Part shown: in pieces, positions 5,076-25,183 of the stretch
Position numbering within the stretch: position 1 is the stretch's first letter
Layout of the letters: each line of letters begins with the position of its first letter
Source of the DNA: a virus
Lineage: Duplodnaviria > Heunggongvirae > Uroviricota > Caudoviricetes
DNA length: 27,476 nucleotides
Reading direction: 5' to 3' (one strand)
IMG/VR virus record: IMGVR_UViG_3300010998_000001
Coordinates: 1-27,476 of that record
The notes under the pieces: model-generated
What the model was told of the DNA's origin: nothing
Database searches by the model: none
The model's input: only the letters and a program-made list of their open reading frames with translations
Translations under genes and position numbers: made by a program

Positions 5076-5661
5076 ATGTCGGGCAGAATTTTGTACATTT
5101 CTGACCTGCATTAGTCATTTTGGACATAAAAATATACTCTCTTATGACAATCGCCCGTTCCTAAACGTGGAAGAGCATGATGAAGAGTTGATTCGCCGCT
5201 GGAATGAGGCGGTGGATTGTGATGATGACGTTTGGATTCTCGGAGATATTAGCTGGCATGGCGCTCAGAAAACCATAGAGATTTTCAATCGTTTAAATGG
5301 AGTGAAGCATCTTTGTGTTGGCAACCATGATGCAAAGTTGCTCCGCAATGAAGATGTACGAAAGCTGTTTGTAGAGATCGTTCCTTATAAGGAAATCCAG
5401 TTGAACGCTAATACAGGCATTGTGCTTTGTCATTATCCGATCCCGTGTTATAACAATCATTATTACGGCTGGTATCATTTGTACGGCCACGTTCATATTA
5501 GCTGGGAGTGGAACATGATGGAACACCTTCAGCGCGAGATGCGCGATCTCTACGGTAAGCAGAGTAATATGTACAATGTCGGTTGCATGATTCCATATAT
5601 GGATTACACACCAAAGACACTAGAACAAATTATTGAGGATAGTAAAGAGTATAGTAAATGA
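5076..5661 (+). pseudogene. Metallophosphoesterase interrupted by a 7-bp insertion in the DxH motif
   Basis: ATG 5076 after GGGGTGAGG gives MSGRILYISDLH*. Removing TAGTCAT (5112-5118) restores SDLHFGHKN, continuing to LGD, GNHD, CHYP and GHVH. Confidence 0.8.
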
Positions 5662-7349
5662 AGATGACGAAGAAGTGCATCTCCGCAGCCAACAAGATTG
5701 TTATGGCGGCAAAAAGTTATGACGCTATGTTGGCAGGAGAAATACCAGTAGATAATGGAGTTGTTCTTACTGATGGACTATCTCTAGTTTTTAGCCCTAT
5801 GTCTTTTGGATTATCAAGATGCCTTTCTGATAATTATGATTTGGTCGGGGGGAGATTAAAAACTACACTTATCAGTGCTTGCAATGTTGATAAGATATTA
5901 GTAAACACTCCATTTCAATTAAAAAAGGTTTCCAGCAAACTATATAACCTTTGTAAAGAACATCAAATTCAAAATAAATACGGACAGAAATTCTTAGATA
6001 TTGATGGTTCTGTTTTTGATACAAAACAACTTCTAAATATTTTTAGTGTTGTTGGCCGTAAAGCGTGTGGCTATCTAGGTGAAAATCCAGAATTATTTGG
6101 CGGCAATAAGTATTTAATTATTGAACCAGAAGATTGTAATTATGAGAATGATGTCTTTGGTATTTTGTTGCAATCAAGAAAATCCGGCTTGTTCCAAGAA
6201 ACCGTTCTTGGTAAAGTTGATAAAGTTCAAAAAGCGATTGAGCGTTTGAAAAACTTTGAACCACCCGAAGGCTATTATCTAGCGTTCTCTGGTGGTAAGG
6301 ATAGTCAATGTATTTATCATCTGGCGAAACTCGCAGGAGTAAAGTTTGATGCGCATTATTCTGTAACAACAGTTGATCCGCCAGAGTTAATGAGATTTAT
6401 TAAGCAAGAGTATCCTGATGTTGAATGGGAATATCATTATTATCCAGATGATCCAAAGTATAATCATCCGAGTGGCAAGCGTAGACAAATTACAATGTGG
6501 AATTTGATTGCAAACCATACAATTCCGCCAACGAGACAGGCAAGATATTGTTGCTCTGAGTTGAAGGAAACGGGTGGCGAAGGTAGACTTGTAGTTACTG
6601 GTGTTCGGTGGGCTGAAAGTGTAAGACGTAGAGATTTGCATGGCGTTGTTGATATGCGAACTACATCGAAGGTTTTGATTAACCAGGCCATGGAGAATAA
6701 TCCAGCGGCCACATTAAACAAACATGAGTCTTTGATCTTTATGGATGATAACGAAGAATCAAAACGAATGGTTGAATATTGTTATGTCCGTAAGCGTACT
6801 ACAGTCAATCCGATTATTGATTGGGAAGATGATGATGTTTGGGAATTTCTTAATGAGGTTGTCAAAGTCCAGCATTGTACATTGTATGATGAAGGATATA
6901 CAAGACTTGGATGTATTGGTTGCCCGTTGCAGGGTAGGGAGGGTATGTTAAAAGATTTTGAACGCTACCCTAGATACAAAGAATTATACATAAAAGCATT
7001 TGATAAGATGATTAAAAATCATCCTGGCGAAATAAAAGTGGCGACTGGTGAATTGGTAACTGACGATTCCTCCGGGGGGGGAGAAAAATTCTCAGAGAAT
7101 GGATTCGATGGAACGCCTGAATCCTCATCGTCCAAGCCCGGAGATCAACCGATGGATCAAGATGAAAACAGGCGTGGAAGCGTTTATGGAGTGGATCAAC
7201 CTATTCTAAGTTCTGTCGGGGGGGAGAGAATCATGCTCAGCGAATGGACAGGAGAGCAGATATTCCACCTCTGGCTATGGGCGCACAGAGCAGACAGAAC
7301 AGAGCAACCGCCATGCAAACTTGTCCCAAACGGGAGAAGAACAGCATGA
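5658..7349 (+). CDS. PAPS reductase (CysH/DndC-like, PP-loop) family protein with an N-terminal extension and a poly-G-switchable C-terminus
   Basis: AFSGGKDS, RYCCSELKE, TGVRWAES..R, NPIIDW and RLGCIGCP motifs from about aa 180; G tracts at 7074-7081 and 7218-7224. Confidence 0.88.
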   Translation: MKMTKKCISAANKIVMAAKSYDAMLAGEIPVDNGVVLTDGLSLVFSPMSFGLSRCLSDNYDLVGGRLKTTLISACNVDKILVNTPFQLKKVSSKLYNLCKEHQIQNKYGQKFLDIDGSVFDTKQLLNIFSVVGRKACGYLGENPELFGGNKYLIIEPEDCNYENDVFGILLQSRKSGLFQETVLGKVDKVQKAIERLKNFEPPEGYYLAFSGGKDSQCIYHLAKLAGVKFDAHYSVTTVDPPELMRFIKQEYPDVEWEYHYYPDDPKYNHPSGKRRQITMWNLIANHTIPPTRQARYCCSELKETGGEGRLVVTGVRWAESVRRRDLHGVVDMRTTSKVLINQAMENNPAATLNKHESLIFMDDNEESKRMVEYCYVRKRTTVNPIIDWEDDDVWEFLNEVVKVQHCTLYDEGYTRLGCIGCPLQGREGMLKDFERYPRYKELYIKAFDKMIKNHPGEIKVATGELVTDDSSGGGEKFSENGFDGTPESSSSKPGDQPMDQDENRRGSVYGVDQPILSSVGGERIMLSEWTGEQIFHLWLWAHRADRTEQPPCKLVPNGRRTA

Positions 7350-7636
7350 CGGACGAATGGTGGAAACTGACGGCGCAAGAGAATTTCGACCTTTGGATCA
7401 GCAAGTGTTAATAAACCATTCACTCTCCGGGGGGGGAGAGATGGTTCAACTGGTGGGTCAATTTCGGGAGCCGACATCCTTAACTGGTGGATGTGGATGC
7501 TCAGAGAGCCAGGAAGTCGAAAGGAGCCAAACCCGTTGCAGAGTAGGTGAGCAATATCTGATTTATTGGCTTTGGAGATGCCGTCAAAACCCGGCAGATG
7601 AAGAGCCAAAGCCAAAAATCATTATTTAATTGGTGA
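7074..7636 (+). repeat. Array of alternative C-terminal cassettes gated by G8 (7074-7081), G7 (7218-7224) and G8 (7429-7436)
   Basis: Seven complete copies and one degenerate copy of [G/A]xxx[F/L]xxW[hydrophobic], spread over all three + frames. Confidence 0.8.
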
Positions 7637-17155: not shown

Positions 17156-17587
17156 ATGTGGGATGAAGAGAATAGCAGATATGTAGAAACCAAGAAATTA
17201 TCTAACGGTCAGACGGTAATGATGGGATTCGATCTAACAGATTGGAACGGAGATACGAATTACTGGAATATTGAGCTGTCAGTTTATAACAAGAGAAAAG
17301 ATCAGTATTCAAATATGGACAAGATTGTTGTAACTGGCGGCTCTCCGTTTGAATCTTTTGCCGCCGCTAGAGAGATGTTCCATTCATTACTATATGATGT
17401 GCTAAACGAATACGGGGGATACGACAATGTAATCTATTGTTCATGGGTCGATAATCGTAGACGTGATGCCTATTATAAGTATCTGTCTAAATATGGTTTT
17501 ACATATACAAATTTATGGGGCCAAAAATTTATCGCCAGAAAATTTAGAAAAAATTTTGATTATAGCGATTTTGTTAATGAGGTATGA
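17156..17587 (+). CDS. Hypothetical protein
   Basis: 143 aa ORF overlapping the next gene (ATGA). Confidence 0.6.
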   Translation: MWDEENSRYVETKKLSNGQTVMMGFDLTDWNGDTNYWNIELSVYNKRKDQYSNMDKIVVTGGSPFESFAAAREMFHSLLYDVLNEYGGYDNVIYCSWVDNRRRDAYYKYLSKYGFTYTNLWGQKFIARKFRKNFDYSDFVNEV

Positions 17588-17853
17588 AAATGACAAATAA
17601 TGAAGCAATTTCTTATCTAATTGAAGCTTACGCATTTTGTTCCGCAAGATATTGTCCTAATGGCGAGTCTGCTGAATGGGAAGAAAAGCTTGAGAAGTTC
17701 CGCGAAGCAATTTCTCATGTTGCAACAAATCTAAATACGAGCATTATCAATTGGCGCGATTATCCTTTGGCTAGAAATGATCCGCCTGTCACGCCGATGA
17801 CTCCTTACGTTACATATTGCAATTCATCCAGAGGTATTTCAGAGGATGAGTAA
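17584..17853 (+). CDS. Hypothetical protein
   Basis: 89 aa; GAGG RBS. Confidence 0.55.
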   Translation: MKMTNNEAISYLIEAYAFCSARYCPNGESAEWEEKLEKFREAISHVATNLNTSIINWRDYPLARNDPPVTPMTPYVTYCNSSRGISEDE

Positions 17854-18592
17854 TGGATACCAGTTGGTAAACTTTTGTGAGTTCGATAAATACGCTGAGA
17901 AAAGTTATTGCGCTGTACATGGTGTTGATCCATCTTTAAATCTTGGTGATATTACAAAGGTTGATGAAACCAATCTTGCACCATTTAATATGATTTGCGG
18001 AGGAAGTCCATGCCAAGATTTCTCCGTCGCGGGAAGTCAAAAGGGAAGTAAATGGGTTTGTAATGAGTGCGGCCATACATATAATCCTCTGACGGTTCAT
18101 TATAGCTCAAGAGATCATTGCCCCATGTGTTTTGGCACAGACATTGATAAAACGCGGAGTTCTCTGCTTGTTGAATGGCTGCGTATCATTCGCGCCAATA
18201 AACCTAACTGGTGTATCTATGAAAATGTAAAGAATCTGGTTGGCAAGAAATTCAAAGACACGTTTCAGATGTTCCTCGATGAGCTGGATGCATATGGATA
18301 CAACTGTTATTATCAGGTACTTAACGCAAAAGACTTTGGTGTGCCTCAAAACAGAGAACGTGTCTATGTGATTGCCATTAAGAAAGAATTAGATAACGGC
18401 AAATTCAAATTCCCCGTTCCATTTGATAGTGATGTAAGCTTAAAGGATATTCTGGAAGAGGATGTAAATGCAAAGTATTATATCGACAGCCCAAAAGCCA
18501 CGGAGCTTATTGAAGAGCTGAAGGAGAACGGTAAGTTAGAACAAAACGTTTCTCGGACTATCCGCTCCGGGGGCGAGCGAGTTGCGACCTGA
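17846..18592 (+). CDS. DNA (cytosine-5)-methyltransferase, catalytic part (motifs II-VIII) with Zn-ribbon insertion
   Basis: FCEFDKYA (II), GDIT (III), GGSPCQDFS (IV), ENVKNL (VI), LNAKDFGVPQNRERVY (VII/VIII); no motif I at the N-terminus. Confidence 0.92.
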   Translation: MSNGYQLVNFCEFDKYAEKSYCAVHGVDPSLNLGDITKVDETNLAPFNMICGGSPCQDFSVAGSQKGSKWVCNECGHTYNPLTVHYSSRDHCPMCFGTDIDKTRSSLLVEWLRIIRANKPNWCIYENVKNLVGKKFKDTFQMFLDELDAYGYNCYYQVLNAKDFGVPQNRERVYVIAIKKELDNGKFKFPVPFDSDVSLKDILEEDVNAKYYIDSPKATELIEELKENGKLEQNVSRTIRSGGERVAT

Positions 18593-19301
18593 ACCATTAT
18601 TGGGATTTAGTATTCAAAAAAGAAAACAACATAATGAATGATATTATACGTTTAGGAAATGTATGTCCAACGAAAACCAGAGATAACCCAAACCAAGGAA
18701 GAGTTTACGATCCTTCTGGCATAGCGCCTACGATCACTAACCTTTCGGGGGAGGCAATCTTCAACCTATGGTGGTTGTAATATATAAACATGAGAAACAA
18801 GAAAGAATACATAGTTATGGCTCTGAGAGGTAGGAGTTCGGGGGTGACGGTTATGAACAAAAACCGGAACTACAATACGAGTTCACCAATACCATCACAA
18901 CCGTTTTGAAAGATAATTACATTTTAGAGCTGGTTGATAATCAAAATGAAGAAAATTACAGACATAATTGAGCCATTTGATGAAAATTATGTAAAGATTA
19001 AGCAAGCAACCAAACAGGGATATATCTTATGTCCGTTCGGGGGTGTGCAGATTTGAGTTTTCCTGGTTCTAAACTTCGTAGAGGAAGAGTACAGGGTGGA
19101 GGTTATATCTGCCCTACATTAATGGCTGGCGAGCCAAATATTTATAAGATCGAGAAAATAGAAAATGGTTAATGGTTTGAACACTTGTGAAAATGATTAC
19201 GCCAGAACGATCAAGGCTCAGTGTGGCAAAAATAGTATTGCTAACTTTTCAAGAATTGATGGTTTTGGTGCGACGGGAGCCATTGCGGGGGTGACGAGGA
19301 T
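18542..19301 (+). other. Array of five target-recognition-like modules, each interrupted by a C-G5 tract
   Basis: G5 at 18569-73, 18747-51, 18840-44, 19039-43 and 19287-91; each reads sensibly after adding one G. Confidence 0.8.
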
Positions 19302-19676
19302 TTGGATTACAGAATAAGAAAGTTGATCCCATTGGAGTGTTGGGAGCTGATGGGGTTTAGTAAAGAAGATTTCTTTTCTGCACAGCTCGGTTCAAGAGAT
19401 AAGGCTAAAGAGCTTTTGTCTAAATATCCCGATGGTGGTTTAGAAATGCTCGATGAGGCAGAGGCTAATTGTAAGGTTTCAAATAGTCAACTGTATAAAC
19501 AAGCTGGCAACTCTATTGTTGTTGATGTTTTGTATTACATATATAAAGAACTTTATGATGCAATGCCATATTTATTTGATGATCTCCAAGTAGGAAGTTA
19601 TTTCTCTGGCATCGGCGCATTTGAAAGAGGTCTTGATTTGTTATACGAAAACGTAATACAAACTAATGAAGGATAA
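19302..19676 (+). CDS. DNA (cytosine-5)-methyltransferase C-terminal part (motifs IX, X and relocated motif I)
   Basis: RIRKLIPLECWELMGF (IX), LYKQAGNSIVVDVL (X), then VGSYFSGIGAFE (I). Confidence 0.9.
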   Translation: MDYRIRKLIPLECWELMGFSKEDFFSAQLGSRDKAKELLSKYPDGGLEMLDEAEANCKVSNSQLYKQAGNSIVVDVLYYIYKELYDAMPYLFDDLQVGSYFSGIGAFERGLDLLYENVIQTNEG

Positions 19677-19678
19677 AT

Positions 19679-19879
19679 ATGAAAGATACATATGAGAACG
19701 CGAATTTTTGCGTATGTTGCGGAGAGATCATTCCTGAAGGAAGAATGGTTTGCAAAAGCTGTGAAGATGGGTCTTATTCGGCCTACAAGAAAGACCCTGG
19801 CAAGCGTAACAAAAGAGATAAAAAAAGAGGTCGCGGCAAACGCGCAGACCTCGATCTCCTTGATGATGCTTGGTATTAA
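19679..19879 (+). CDS. Small Zn-finger hypothetical protein
   Basis: CVCCGEIIPEGRMVCKSC. Confidence 0.65.
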   Translation: MKDTYENANFCVCCGEIIPEGRMVCKSCEDGSYSAYKKDPGKRNKRDKKRGRGKRADLDLLDDAWY

Positions 19880-20487
19880 GTTTTTTCTAAGAAAAGTTTT
19901 TGCATATCATTGTCCCACATAATGTTAGACCTATTGTTTTTCCATCTGGCGTAATCATTGATCCGATTCCTGGATGCTTCGCCAGATAGCATAAATCTTC
20001 TTTGAACATCATCCGCCACATGAATGTCCATTAAAGAGAAGAACGGCATAGGTGCAAGAAGCGTGGCAGCAAAATAATCCGCCTCTTTTTCATATTCTGG
20101 ATAGCTGCTTAGATCGTTTTCGGCAAACTTCTCAATATGTGGACACAATTCAAAGTGACCGCATAGGATATGGCCGATCTCGTGAGCTAGTGTCCAGCGC
20201 CTCCGGCCAGCATTATTATCAAACACGGCCTCATTTGTCATAATGAGATAACGATTTGTTGTTCGATCATAGTATGTGCAGCCAGACGTACTTTCGCAAG
20301 CGTCGATTACTTCTTGCACTTTCTTTCTGGACATGACAGCCACACGTTGATAGGAAGTATGGCGACAATTAGGGATAATGTTAACAATAGATTTAAGATC
20401 GAGCGGGAATTTAATGTGATCCATTCCCTTGTAGATTTCATATACGATGTTTTCAATATACCTATATCTTACCATCCTAATCTCCAA
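19876..20487 (-). CDS. ImmA/IrrE-family metallopeptidase
   Basis: RRRWTLAHEIGH (HExxH) and EKEADYFAATLLAP; directly downstream of the XRE gene. Confidence 0.9.
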   Translation of the reverse strand: MEIRMVRYRYIENIVYEIYKGMDHIKFPLDLKSIVNIIPNCRHTSYQRVAVMSRKKVQEVIDACESTSGCTYYDRTTNRYLIMTNEAVFDNNAGRRRWTLAHEIGHILCGHFELCPHIEKFAENDLSSYPEYEKEADYFAATLLAPMPFFSLMDIHVADDVQRRFMLSGEASRNRINDYARWKNNRSNIMWDNDMQKLFLEKT

Positions 20488-20818
20488 AAGCGTCTTTGAA
20501 TCCGGCGCGTAATATCGCCATCATCGTCTTACGACCTGAAGGTGACGAGTTCTCTCGCGCACGTTGGAACGCAATAATATCATCGTCGCCTAATAGTTCT
20601 GATGCAGGAGCTTCGATTTCTGTTCTACCAGAAAGGAAATCGACTGAAACGTTGAAATAATTGGCAATTCTCACCACCTTATCAATGGATGGCACATTGC
20701 GCGATTTCCACTTTGAAATAGTTCCGTTCGAGATACCACATTCTTTTTCAAGCTGCTGTAGTGTGACATGATTTCTTTCGCACAGCATTTTAATACGGTC
20801 ATACAAAGTGGTTTCCAT
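20477..20818 (-). CDS. XRE-family HTH repressor
   Basis: TLQQLEKECGISNGTISKW...PSIDKVVRIANYFNVSVDFL; AGGAG RBS on the minus strand. Confidence 0.92.
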   Translation of the reverse strand: METTLYDRIKMLCERNHVTLQQLEKECGISNGTISKWKSRNVPSIDKVVRIANYFNVSVDFLSGRTEIEAPASELLGDDDIIAFQRARENSSPSGRKTMMAILRAGFKDAFGD

Positions 20819-21296: not shown

Positions 21297-22539
21297 ACAA
21301 GAGCAGGACAGACAAGATTCTACGGTAGAGTTGATTGCTAGCGAAAATTTTGTAAGTGAAAACGTCTTGCGAGCAATGGGTTCCGTGCTGACAAATAAGT
21401 ACAGCGAGGGTTATCCAGATGTTGATAGAACTGGTAATCGCGGCAGATACTATGGCGGTTGCCACGTTGTAGATAAGATCGAGCAATATTGTTGTGACAA
21501 GTGGCGTGAGGTCTTTAGAACAAATTACCATGTGAATGTGCAACCACATTCTGGCTCTAGCGCAAATCTCGCGGCTTATATGAGCGTCTTAAAGCCTGGC
21601 GATACGATCCTTGCCATGAACTTGAATAATGGCGGGCATCTGACACATGGTAGCTCTGTCAATTTTAGCGGTAAACTTTTCAATTTCGTTTTCTATGATG
21701 TTGATGAGAATGGCTTAATTGACTATGATGATTTAGAAAACAAAATTTATGAATATCGCCCCAAGATGGTTGTTGCGGGGGCCAGCGCTTATTCTAGGAT
21801 TATTAATTTTAAGCGCATTCATAATATCATCACAACTGTCTTGGATAGAATTGCGGATGAGAACATTCATGCGCAACGTTTTAATCGAGATGGCGAATGT
21901 ATCTCAGATATTCCAGAAGATTATCCAAGACCTTATTTCATGGTGGATATGTCCCATATCGCTGGACTTGTGGCCGCTGGTTGGCATCCGTCGCCATTTG
22001 GCGAGGCTGATATTATTACTACGACAACTCATAAGACATTGCGAGGGCCGAGGGGCGGAATTATCTTTTGCCGTAATGCTCTAGCGAAGAAAGTTGATAG
22101 CGCTGTGTTCCCTGGTACACAGGGAGGAGCATTGCAGAATGTCATTGCGGCGAAGGCTATCGCGGCGGAAGAAGCTTGTACATATGAGTATAAAGATTAC
22201 ATACGCAGGGTAGTTGAAAACACACGAGCTATGGCCGAAGAGTTTTCCAATCTTGGCTATAACGTCGTAACTGGCGGAACAGATAACCACTTATTCCTAA
22301 TAGATTTTTCTAAGACGCATCCTAATCTGACAGGTGCTATGATCCAGGCTGAATTAGATGCCCATGGCATCACGGTCAATAAGAACTGCGTTCCTGGTGA
22401 AAAGCGGAGTCCAAAGGAAACAAGCGGCATCCGCGTCGGGTGTGCAGCTATGACAACAAAAGGATTTAATAAAGATCATTTTGTAATTCTGGCGCACAAT
22501 ATAGACAGGATCATTAAGAAGATGGATACAGACAATTAA
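21256..22539 (+). CDS. glyA: Serine hydroxymethyltransferase
   Basis: ELIASEN, NKYSEGYP, RYYGGC, NVQPHSG, GGHLTHG, TTTTHKTLRGPRGG, GGTDNHL; likely start ATG 21268. Confidence 0.96.
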   Translation: MRQVMESKVFQLIKQEQDRQDSTVELIASENFVSENVLRAMGSVLTNKYSEGYPDVDRTGNRGRYYGGCHVVDKIEQYCCDKWREVFRTNYHVNVQPHSGSSANLAAYMSVLKPGDTILAMNLNNGGHLTHGSSVNFSGKLFNFVFYDVDENGLIDYDDLENKIYEYRPKMVVAGASAYSRIINFKRIHNIITTVLDRIADENIHAQRFNRDGECISDIPEDYPRPYFMVDMSHIAGLVAAGWHPSPFGEADIITTTTHKTLRGPRGGIIFCRNALAKKVDSAVFPGTQGGALQNVIAAKAIAAEEACTYEYKDYIRRVVENTRAMAEEFSNLGYNVVTGGTDNHLFLIDFSKTHPNLTGAMIQAELDAHGITVNKNCVPGEKRSPKETSGIRVGCAAMTTKGFNKDHFVILAHNIDRIIKKMDTDN

Positions 22540-24092: not shown

Positions 24093-24629
24093 ATGGCTTT
24101 GACGGCGGAACAGCAAGAATTAGTAACTAACAACCATCAACTGATTTACGGATTCTGCAATCAAAGAAATATATCGCTTGAAGAAAACTACGATCTATGC
24201 GCCATTGGGTTATGCAAAGCAGCGGAGATTTTTGATCCGAGCCGGGGGCTTTCGTTTTCCACTCTGGCGTATAGATGTATGGCTAATGAAGTTCAAATGC
24301 AAAAGCGGAAAGAAAACACAATTGCCAGAAAAGCAGATGTTTCCGCAGATTCATTAGACAGAACAATTAAAACAGATGGCGGTACAACAATTACACTCCA
24401 TGATGTTCTATCCAATACATTGGTCGCAAATCATAATCCTCTTTCTACTGTAATGTTCAAAGATTTCTATGAATCATTAACGGAACAAGAAAAGATTGTG
24501 ATTGCGTACAGAATGGCAGGATTGAAACAGCGTGAGATTGCAGAGAGAATACATAAATCGAGAGCATATGTCTGTATGATTCTATCCAGAGTAAAAGAAA
24601 AGGTAGCGAGGTACACAGAGATTATATGA
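24093..24629 (+). CDS. Sigma-70-family sigma factor
   Basis: IGLCKAAEIFDPSRGLSFSTLAYRCM (region 2); C-terminal HTH KQREIAERIHKSRAYV (region 4). Confidence 0.85.
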   Translation: MALTAEQQELVTNNHQLIYGFCNQRNISLEENYDLCAIGLCKAAEIFDPSRGLSFSTLAYRCMANEVQMQKRKENTIARKADVSADSLDRTIKTDGGTTITLHDVLSNTLVANHNPLSTVMFKDFYESLTEQEKIVIAYRMAGLKQREIAERIHKSRAYVCMILSRVKEKVARYTEII

Positions 24630-25183
24630 TTGTTCAAGACCTACATAATTTGCCGAAAACGTATGATTTGATTTATGCTGATCCGCCGTGGAAACAAAGC
24701 AAGGGCGGTAAGAAAGCTGTTAGAGCCAATAGCAGCGGAACAGAACTTGATTATCCAGTAATGAGCTTAGATGATATTAAAGAACATTTGCGGCTCGCAA
24801 CAGACAGTTCGGGGGAGAACGCGATACTTTTCTTGTGGACGATAGACAAGTATTTGTTTGAAGCGCAGCAGATAGCAGAATCTCTTGGCTGGAAACTCCA
24901 TGCAAGAATGATATGGGATAAGGTTACTGGCATCCCTGCCGCGTTTACTGTTCGATATGGGCATGAGTATTTACTTTATATGTATAAGGGGAAGTTCACT
25001 CCTGTTGCGACGGAAGAGCGCGGAAAGATACATACTGTGTTCCGCGAAAAGGTCACATCTCATAGCAAAAAGCCTAAGATTGCATACAATATCATCGAAA
25101 GACTTTATCCGACTCTTTCTAAGATCGAGCTTTATGCTCGAAATGAAAGAGAAGGGTGGGATAGTTTTGGTAACGAATTGTGA
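24626..25183 (+). CDS. MT-A70-family adenine methyltransferase
   Basis: YDLIYADPPW, LFLW, HEYLL, HSKKP and IELYAR motifs. Confidence 0.92.
   Translation: MIVQDLHNLPKTYDLIYADPPWKQSKGGKKAVRANSSGTELDYPVMSLDDIKEHLRLATDSSGENAILFLWTIDKYLFEAQQIAESLGWKLHARMIWDKVTGIPAAFTVRYGHEYLLYMYKGKFTPVATEERGKIHTVFREKVTSHSKKPKIAYNIIERLYPTLSKIELYARNEREGWDSFGNEL

Follow-up and report, generated by a model that had tools for sequence, protein, structure and literature searches.

A permuted, split C5 methyltransferase locus in a gut phage, with putative target-recognition modules that are likely switched by slippage

The window analyzed here covers positions 1 to 27,476 of a virus record of 155,476 bp that has direct terminal repeats and is rated complete. 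It holds the only PF00145 locus (17852 to 19553) found by a profile search of the whole genome. An earlier note had described this locus as a C5 methyltransferase gene with five modules resembling target recognition domains (TRDs), each disabled by a C-G5 tract that is one base short. Is such a gene decaying, misassembled, recoded, or switched? We favor, at a probability of about 0.55, a permuted, split phage C5 methyltransferase whose TRD-like mini-genes are likely switched by slippage, with the G5 tracts as short alleles and the modules predicted to dock in trans.

Two core halves and the modules between them

The N-terminal core half (248 aa; 17846 to 18592, plus strand; PF00145, E = 2.7e-49; phrog_116) begins at motif II and continues through motif IV (PCQ), a CxxC..CxxC insert, motif VI (ENV), and motif VIII into the first half of module 1. 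No motif I was found upstream of it. The C-terminal core half (124 aa; 19302 to 19676, plus strand; PF00145) begins at TTG 19302. It had been described as a motif IX-X open reading frame (ORF); both motifs are present, and they are followed by motif I at about 19590 to 19622. Motif I was identified from a weak match to M.HhaI 11-29 together with matches to DRM2. Between them, the two ORFs hold motifs IV (PC), VI (ENV), and VIII and the SAM-binding motif I, and of the 139 loci that have both halves, 136 likewise carry motif I toward the C-terminus. We concluded from the motif order that the enzyme is circularly permuted, the gene opening at motif II and its last ORF ending with motif I. A G-rich stretch resembling a ribosome-binding site lies upstream of TTG 19302 (19287 to 19300), and we infer that the C-terminal half is translated from this start of its own.

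A structural model of the continuous relative L091 had pLDDT values of mostly 76 to 97 in the core blocks, and its top Foldseek match was M.HhaI (E = 2e-17). Based on this model of a continuous relative, the window's core is predicted to have an M.HhaI-like fold. AlphaFold models of the modules were uninformative (pLDDT below 50 when modules were modeled in tandem, 55 when one was modeled free), and no solved structure in the PDB aligned over the modules. The CxxC..CxxC insert, between motifs IV and V (18053 to 18135), is zinc ribbon-like and nearly invariant among relatives.

The G5 runs at 18569, 18747, 18840, 19039, and 19287 are all present as previously described, each after a C. With 49 runs of at least five G's on both strands of the 155,476 bp, 0.11 would be expected in 789 bp; the probability of at least five in that interval is 1.4e-7 (5e-5 genome-wide). 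Tract 1 (18569 to 18573) lies inside module 1. As found, the frame entering it stops at 18592, and one added base would connect the core half with module 1 and the first half of module 2. Modules 2 to 5 are mini-ORFs on the plus strand. Module 2 (18634 to 18833) starts at ATG 18634, which we add to the previously proposed starts at 18790, 18946, and 19165, all of which we confirmed; its tract (18747 to 18751) leads to a stop at 18780 as found and at 18833 if in frame. One added base moves the stop of module 3 (ATG 18790; 18790 to 18971; tract 18840 to 18844) from 18909 to 18971 and that of module 4 (ATG 18946; 18946 to 19172; tract 19039 to 19043) from 19056 to 19172. Module 5 (ATG 19165; 19165 to 19317) departs from the description of every module as disabled by its tract: it already encodes a whole peptide of 50 aa, ending at the stop at 19317, and its tract (19287 to 19291) lies in the linker behind it and sets only fusion to the C-terminal half. 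The claim that the modules stay separate mini-ORFs even after repair was correct, with stops persisting at 18833, 18971, and 19172.

One-base repair at tracts 2 to 5 gave the best match to intact relatives, with E values of 2.6e-9, 2.7e-5 (to L148), 1.3e-21 (to L059), and 5.5e-10 (to L084), respectively. The same repair proposed at tract 1 yielded no clear match among intact relatives; the tract 1 module is in frame at G6 in the split relatives L010, L011, and L016. The first half of module 2 matches 122 collected loci. Successive modules are offset by +1 at all three junctions in the window and by +1 or -1 in relatives, and the module starts in the window score weakly for ribosome binding (-1 to -3 kcal).

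Position and homology together support the assignment of the modules as putative variable-region (TRD-like) units of C5 methyltransferases. The variable region of relatives matches annotated phage cytosine methyltransferases (phage Dcm) and PHROG methyltransferase families, and the repaired modules resemble such regions, a check that the earlier note had named; by themselves, the window's module peptides have no PHROG match. The same module types occur in tandem within continuous relatives, and in alignments of intact relatives module 5 stands directly before motif IX. One module type forms 35 clusters of stand-alone proteins of 39 to 109 aa, in full and truncated forms. The 50-aa free form of module 5 is also found in two other assemblies, P0037 (74% identical) and P0038; in a weak test, its fused, longer form was not found at E ≤ 0.001 among longer proteins.

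For module windows anchored on conserved motifs, dN/dS was 0.04 to 0.16, including types seen only unfused, compared with 0.6 to 5.1 for shifted-frame controls; the pairs are non-independent, and there was no usable value for the window's module types 2 to 5. No anchored module window contained a stop. The mini-ORFs therefore appear to be under purifying selection. Many modules in relatives carry an ATG with a ribosome-binding site. In the variable regions of L161 and L248, a short ORF unlike the modules, which we take to be HicB-like, sits among them.

Split relatives and modules away from the core

We assembled a family set of 116 distinct loci; a further search extended it to 177 distinct loci, of which 81 are split, many also with a poly-C tract. 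Among the 116, runs of at least five G's occur in the variable region of 25 of 30 broken loci versus 4 of 86 continuous loci (p = 2e-16), and the continuous loci contain 198 Gly-Gly codon pairs, not one of which is spelled as six G's. A metagenome set that partly overlaps the first (80 loci, from which 11 incomplete and 7 duplicate loci were dropped) had tracts in 13 of 16 split versus 7 of 50 continuous loci. A quick tree groups the window with other split loci in a clade of 28 (SH-aLRT, 95); a poly-C clade, with 36 members (SH-aLRT, 99), stands separate from it. In a separate clade (L179-L233, L103-L108), a C7 to C11 run before module 1 selects between two overlapping-frame modules, and G tracts are present too. 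The split layout is also present in an isolate genome/prophage, L081.

We followed every frame choice at runs of G≥5 and C≥6 through 77 split loci. In none of them does a single chain extend from the N-terminal half to motif IX; allowing A6, T6, and C5 runs as well gives a single chain in 1 of 77. The median reach from the N-terminal half is 214 nt of a 615-nt region, and a possible start precedes motif IX in all 77 loci. We concluded that the enzyme is not one chain under any tract state.

Relatives also have modules placed after motif I. In 30 of 90 continuous relatives, the gene is followed by a module-bearing ORF, often overlapping the gene end in another frame and without a Met, and for this reason we regard the modules as not tied to one position. 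These downstream tails may add TRDs behind motif I by a candidate -1 ribosomal frameshift, since two translations imply a slippery heptamer. Overlap of the C-terminal end by module-bearing ORFs in another frame is seen at L023:5250-5700 and in L017, L065, L012, and others.

A library of 838 module peptides matched, besides the gene itself, a second place in the phage genome (2091 to 2204, E = 8e-15), 16 kb from the core. There, two overlapping mini-genes on the plus strand each contain a C-G5 tract that is one base short. Orphan module A (2044 to 2240; ATG 2044; tract 2080 to 2084) matches variable-region modules, and its second half is 58 to 70% identical to modules inside relatives' genes; the module of L008, at 70%, has a C-G5 at the same place. 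Orphan module B (2218 to 2381; tract 2248 to 2252) starts with GTG 2218 behind GAGGT, and its second half is 62% identical to the last module of L082 (E = 2.8e-10); compared with the collected loci, a B-like module also lies behind or inside many other methyltransferase loci. No PF00145 match was found near the orphans, and no frameshift could fuse them to the core. Such modules, with no core beside them, are the best hint for action in trans. Orphan placement of module A was seen in 0 of 47 related records, all 6 good matches being inside the gene; it is a single case so far and could be a remnant or reserve.

A reserve is what one alternative proposes for all such modules: the tracts are DNA switches, but only modules fused to the core act, and the middle and orphan modules are silent until deletion or recombination, often between tracts, fuses them. 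In its favor, L014 joins two different module halves at a G8, and 93- to 94-nt indels separate L013 from L014 and L016 from L160. Tract 1 at G7 opens, via the alternative frame, into the next module in several relatives (L001, L003, L013, and others; L160 reads further), making a three-way switch that this genome does not have. Published complementation, as far as the available text of the two reports goes, involved large fragments only (PMC3404938, PMC5944983). A silent reserve, however, would need no start, ribosome-binding site, or tract of its own, and the middle modules have these; they also show purifying selection, and the short median reach of the N-terminal half speaks against it as well. 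We consider this explanation unlikely, though worth keeping in view.

Tract lengths and the G5 state

At homologous module positions, the tracts range from 5 to 12 G's and occur in all three frames, in agreement with the expectation that their length varies among relatives. The tract homologous to tract 1 is G5, G6, G7, or G8 across 16 loci (states assigned by motif typing, with L133 untyped). We typed 91 tracts: a shift of +1 would be needed in 46 and of -1 in 22, and the other 23 are in frame; only 1 of 29 G5 tracts is in frame, compared with 14 of 17 G6 tracts. We then compared 23 non-overlapping near-identical pairs drawn from 82 split regions, most of them from the long-tract poly-C clade. 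There were 34 length changes in 67 tracts and 10 other indels in 19,956 nt outside the tracts. Near-identical members of the clade thus carry frame-setting repeats of variable length, as is characteristic of SSR contingency loci.

Eight of the near-identical pairs have a G5 tract, and in 4 of them it was unchanged. No G5/G6 mixture was found at seven G5 runs in the contigs of the sample, and at the five runs of the locus the contigs of three sequencing runs show no indel. This sample is from animal gut and consists of assembled contigs from three sequencing runs, perhaps the record's own source, in which rare alleles are dropped. When viral contigs were searched with the exact flanks of tract 4, there were 0 matches; near-identical records possibly lie outside that collection. 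G5 looks like a slow-switching floor state and not a hot switch. The G5 tracts cluster by locus (permutation p < 1e-4). A preceding C, found at all five tracts here as the earlier note had said, proved not to be universal among relatives (30 of 82 tracts): it is present at 21 of 29 G5 tracts versus 9 of 53 longer ones. Within this genome, C precedes 29 of 49 runs of at least five G's versus 317 of 1,282 runs of three or four; by length, the C-preceded share is 22 to 28% for G1 to G4, 24/44 for G5, and 5/5 for G6 and longer.

Because random slippage does not explain the clustering of G5 or the preference for C, we kept alive a second alternative, in which C-G5 is a recoding signal (RNA polymerase slippage or a -1 ribosomal shift) that yields a constant low share of every module without any change in DNA. 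All 7 module tracts in this genome are C-G5 and need +1, tract 5 has the same G5 frame in P0037 and P0038, and the module ORF behind the gene in continuous relatives resembles ribosomal frameshifting, the heptamer being deduced from translations. The five tracts do not share one codon phase, however (0, 2, 2, 0, 2), and relatives need -1 as well as +1, with tracts of up to G12. Recoding at the tracts would yield no single chain either. In-frame C-G5 is common in intact genes of this genome; we confirmed that the runs at 21777, 23698, 24244, and 24811 lie in long frames, as does the G6 at 5847. These considerations make recoding a distinctly unlikely account of the tracts.

The genes with in-frame C-G5 include an MT-A70 methyltransferase (24811), a likely N4/N6 methyltransferase (29915), a sigma factor, glyA, and an RNA ligase-like gene, and their runs are possibly ON alleles. 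The G6 at 5847 is in frame in a gene with a PAPS reductase domain (5658 to 7629, plus strand), whose tail consists of short Trp-rich segments in alternating frames that hold G8, G7, and G8 tracts at 7074, 7218, and 7429. For the tract at 7429, two of the three sequencing runs gave contigs with G7 and one gave G8, at a depth under 5. This likely DNA modification gene thus has the look of another cassette switched by tracts.

A further possibility is that the clade is phase variable and this copy is locked off, its tracts having shrunk to a stable G5 in a gene heading for loss. No module tract is in frame in this genome, 7 of 19 typed loci have none in frame, and the window's core has a long terminal branch (0.36). 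In addition, GGWCC (GGACC/GGTCC) is absent from the genome (0 versus 47.6 expected per orientation), and CCGG and GGCC occur at 0.58 and 0.69 of expectation; this depletion likely reflects avoidance of host restriction sites, on which the phage may rely. Against decay, no stop and no further indel interrupts any of the catalytic motifs or the seven module halves, module 5 is already whole, and close variants retain the same frames. We consider decay improbable.

Sequencing or assembly error that cut G6 to G5 is barely credible even though the data are assembled contigs from one sample, since the stops between modules persist after repair, runs of G6 to G8 after C survive in the same genome, tract 5 has the same frame in two other assemblies of diverged sequence, and the isolate L081 has the split layout.

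A proposed mechanism and its precedents

We concluded that the locus is likely a conserved, phase-variable, multi-piece, multispecific C5 methyltransferase and that this phage carries it in an all-short state. In the proposed mechanism, the two core halves would assemble as in M.AquI, and modules would dock on the assembled core in trans, one at a time. Replication slippage at the poly-G tracts would set which modules are whole; each in-frame module would add one specificity, with G6 presumably the usual ON allele. In this all-short genome, module 5 would be the only whole module, made as a peptide of its own, and translation of the C-terminal half would begin separately at TTG 19302, so that the phage would use module 5 alone or nothing. 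The likely purpose would be bet-hedging between host restriction enzymes that 5mC blocks and those that cleave DNA carrying 5mC. The broadest form of this proposal, to which we give slightly less than even odds, is that TRD peptides of 45 to 65 residues, made from slippage-switched mini-genes anywhere in the genome, dock on a two-piece core and allow at most 2^6 methylation patterns.

The Bacillus phage multispecific enzymes M.SPRI, M.Phi3TI, M.Rho11sI, M.H2I, and M.PhiBssHII resemble this locus in being phage encoded and in placing several module-like units between motifs VIII and IX of a C5 core. They are single polypeptides with canonical motif order and are not known to carry repeat switches; M.PhiBssHII reportedly has modules at a second place in the chain also, as in the family described here. 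None of the five was among the best 40 of 113 matches listed. The present locus, in contrast, is permuted and in pieces, and it does not encode one polypeptide with motifs in the order I to X. Judged from its sequence, the system would work like a multispecific phage methyltransferase yet is not a member of that group, being neither one chain nor in canonical order.

Two-polypeptide C5 enzymes provide a second comparison. According to the available text of PMC3404938, the core of M.AquI and of M.EcoHK31I is split in or near the variable region, and here too the split lies within the variable region and gives separately started ORFs (with the start at 19302 put forward as above). Those enzymes have two chains, one specificity, canonical order, and no tracts, whereas this locus has two halves and several free modules. 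Natural permuted C5 methyltransferases of type H/J (M.BssHII, M.Alw26I, M2.Eco31I, M.Esp3I, and M2.BsaI) have motif X before motif I, as here. All 27 found in REBASE are cut in the variable region, in the portion of the 2018 survey available (PMC5944983), and a natural permutation with motif I last is absent from that portion; the present family, unlike those 27, opens at motif II and has motif I last, placing the site between I and II. The same text reports that engineered permuted C5 enzymes and fragments can be active and that split ones complement (PMC5944983).

The nearest case of a G run that changes specificity is NgoAV, in which a poly-G homopolymer in hsdS alters the frame and the recognition motif (available text of PMC6789123). 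NgoAV is a bacterial Type I adenine system with a single tract, whereas the enzyme here is an orphan C5 methyltransferase of a phage, and each module has a tract. Phage contingency loci switched by homopolymer slippage are described for T2 agt and T4 rIIA, agt being a DNA modification gene that hedges between restriction systems (available text of bioRxiv 10.1101/2025.10.21.683753, in which the term "methyltransferase" is absent). These loci turn one gene on or off through repeats of at least 6 bases, whereas switching here would be combinatorial, with tracts of 5 bases. A search of the open-access literature found no description of the system presented here.

If the proposed reading is true, gut phages would have combinatorial, heritable methylome variation against host restriction, and the locus would unite three features so far known separately, namely phage enzymes with several specificities, split enzymes, and phase variation driven by repeats. 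If modules of 50 residues act in trans, for which the odds seem to us a little short of even, C5 specificity would be a plug-in and the enzyme architecture would be new. Such plug-in modules would bear on the exchange of TRDs at a single active site in multispecific enzymes and could serve as a library for building methyltransferases. Annotation pipelines take loci of this kind for pseudogenes or unrelated small ORFs.

Promoter and terminator scans of the locus gave matches at chance level, and an invertible cassette was rejected because long direct or inverted repeats are absent at 17400 to 19900. Close relatives of the gene come from large phage contigs and from genomes of Clostridia, including a Ruminococcus isolate, and the host is therefore probably a gut clostridium. 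The window also contains further DNA methyltransferases, with N6_Mtase (465 to 1229) and MT-A70 (24626 to 25183) matches. Directly behind the methyltransferase locus, on the minus strand, is an IrrE/ImmA-like peptidase with an HTH repressor (19876 to 20818), which suggests that the phage is temperate.
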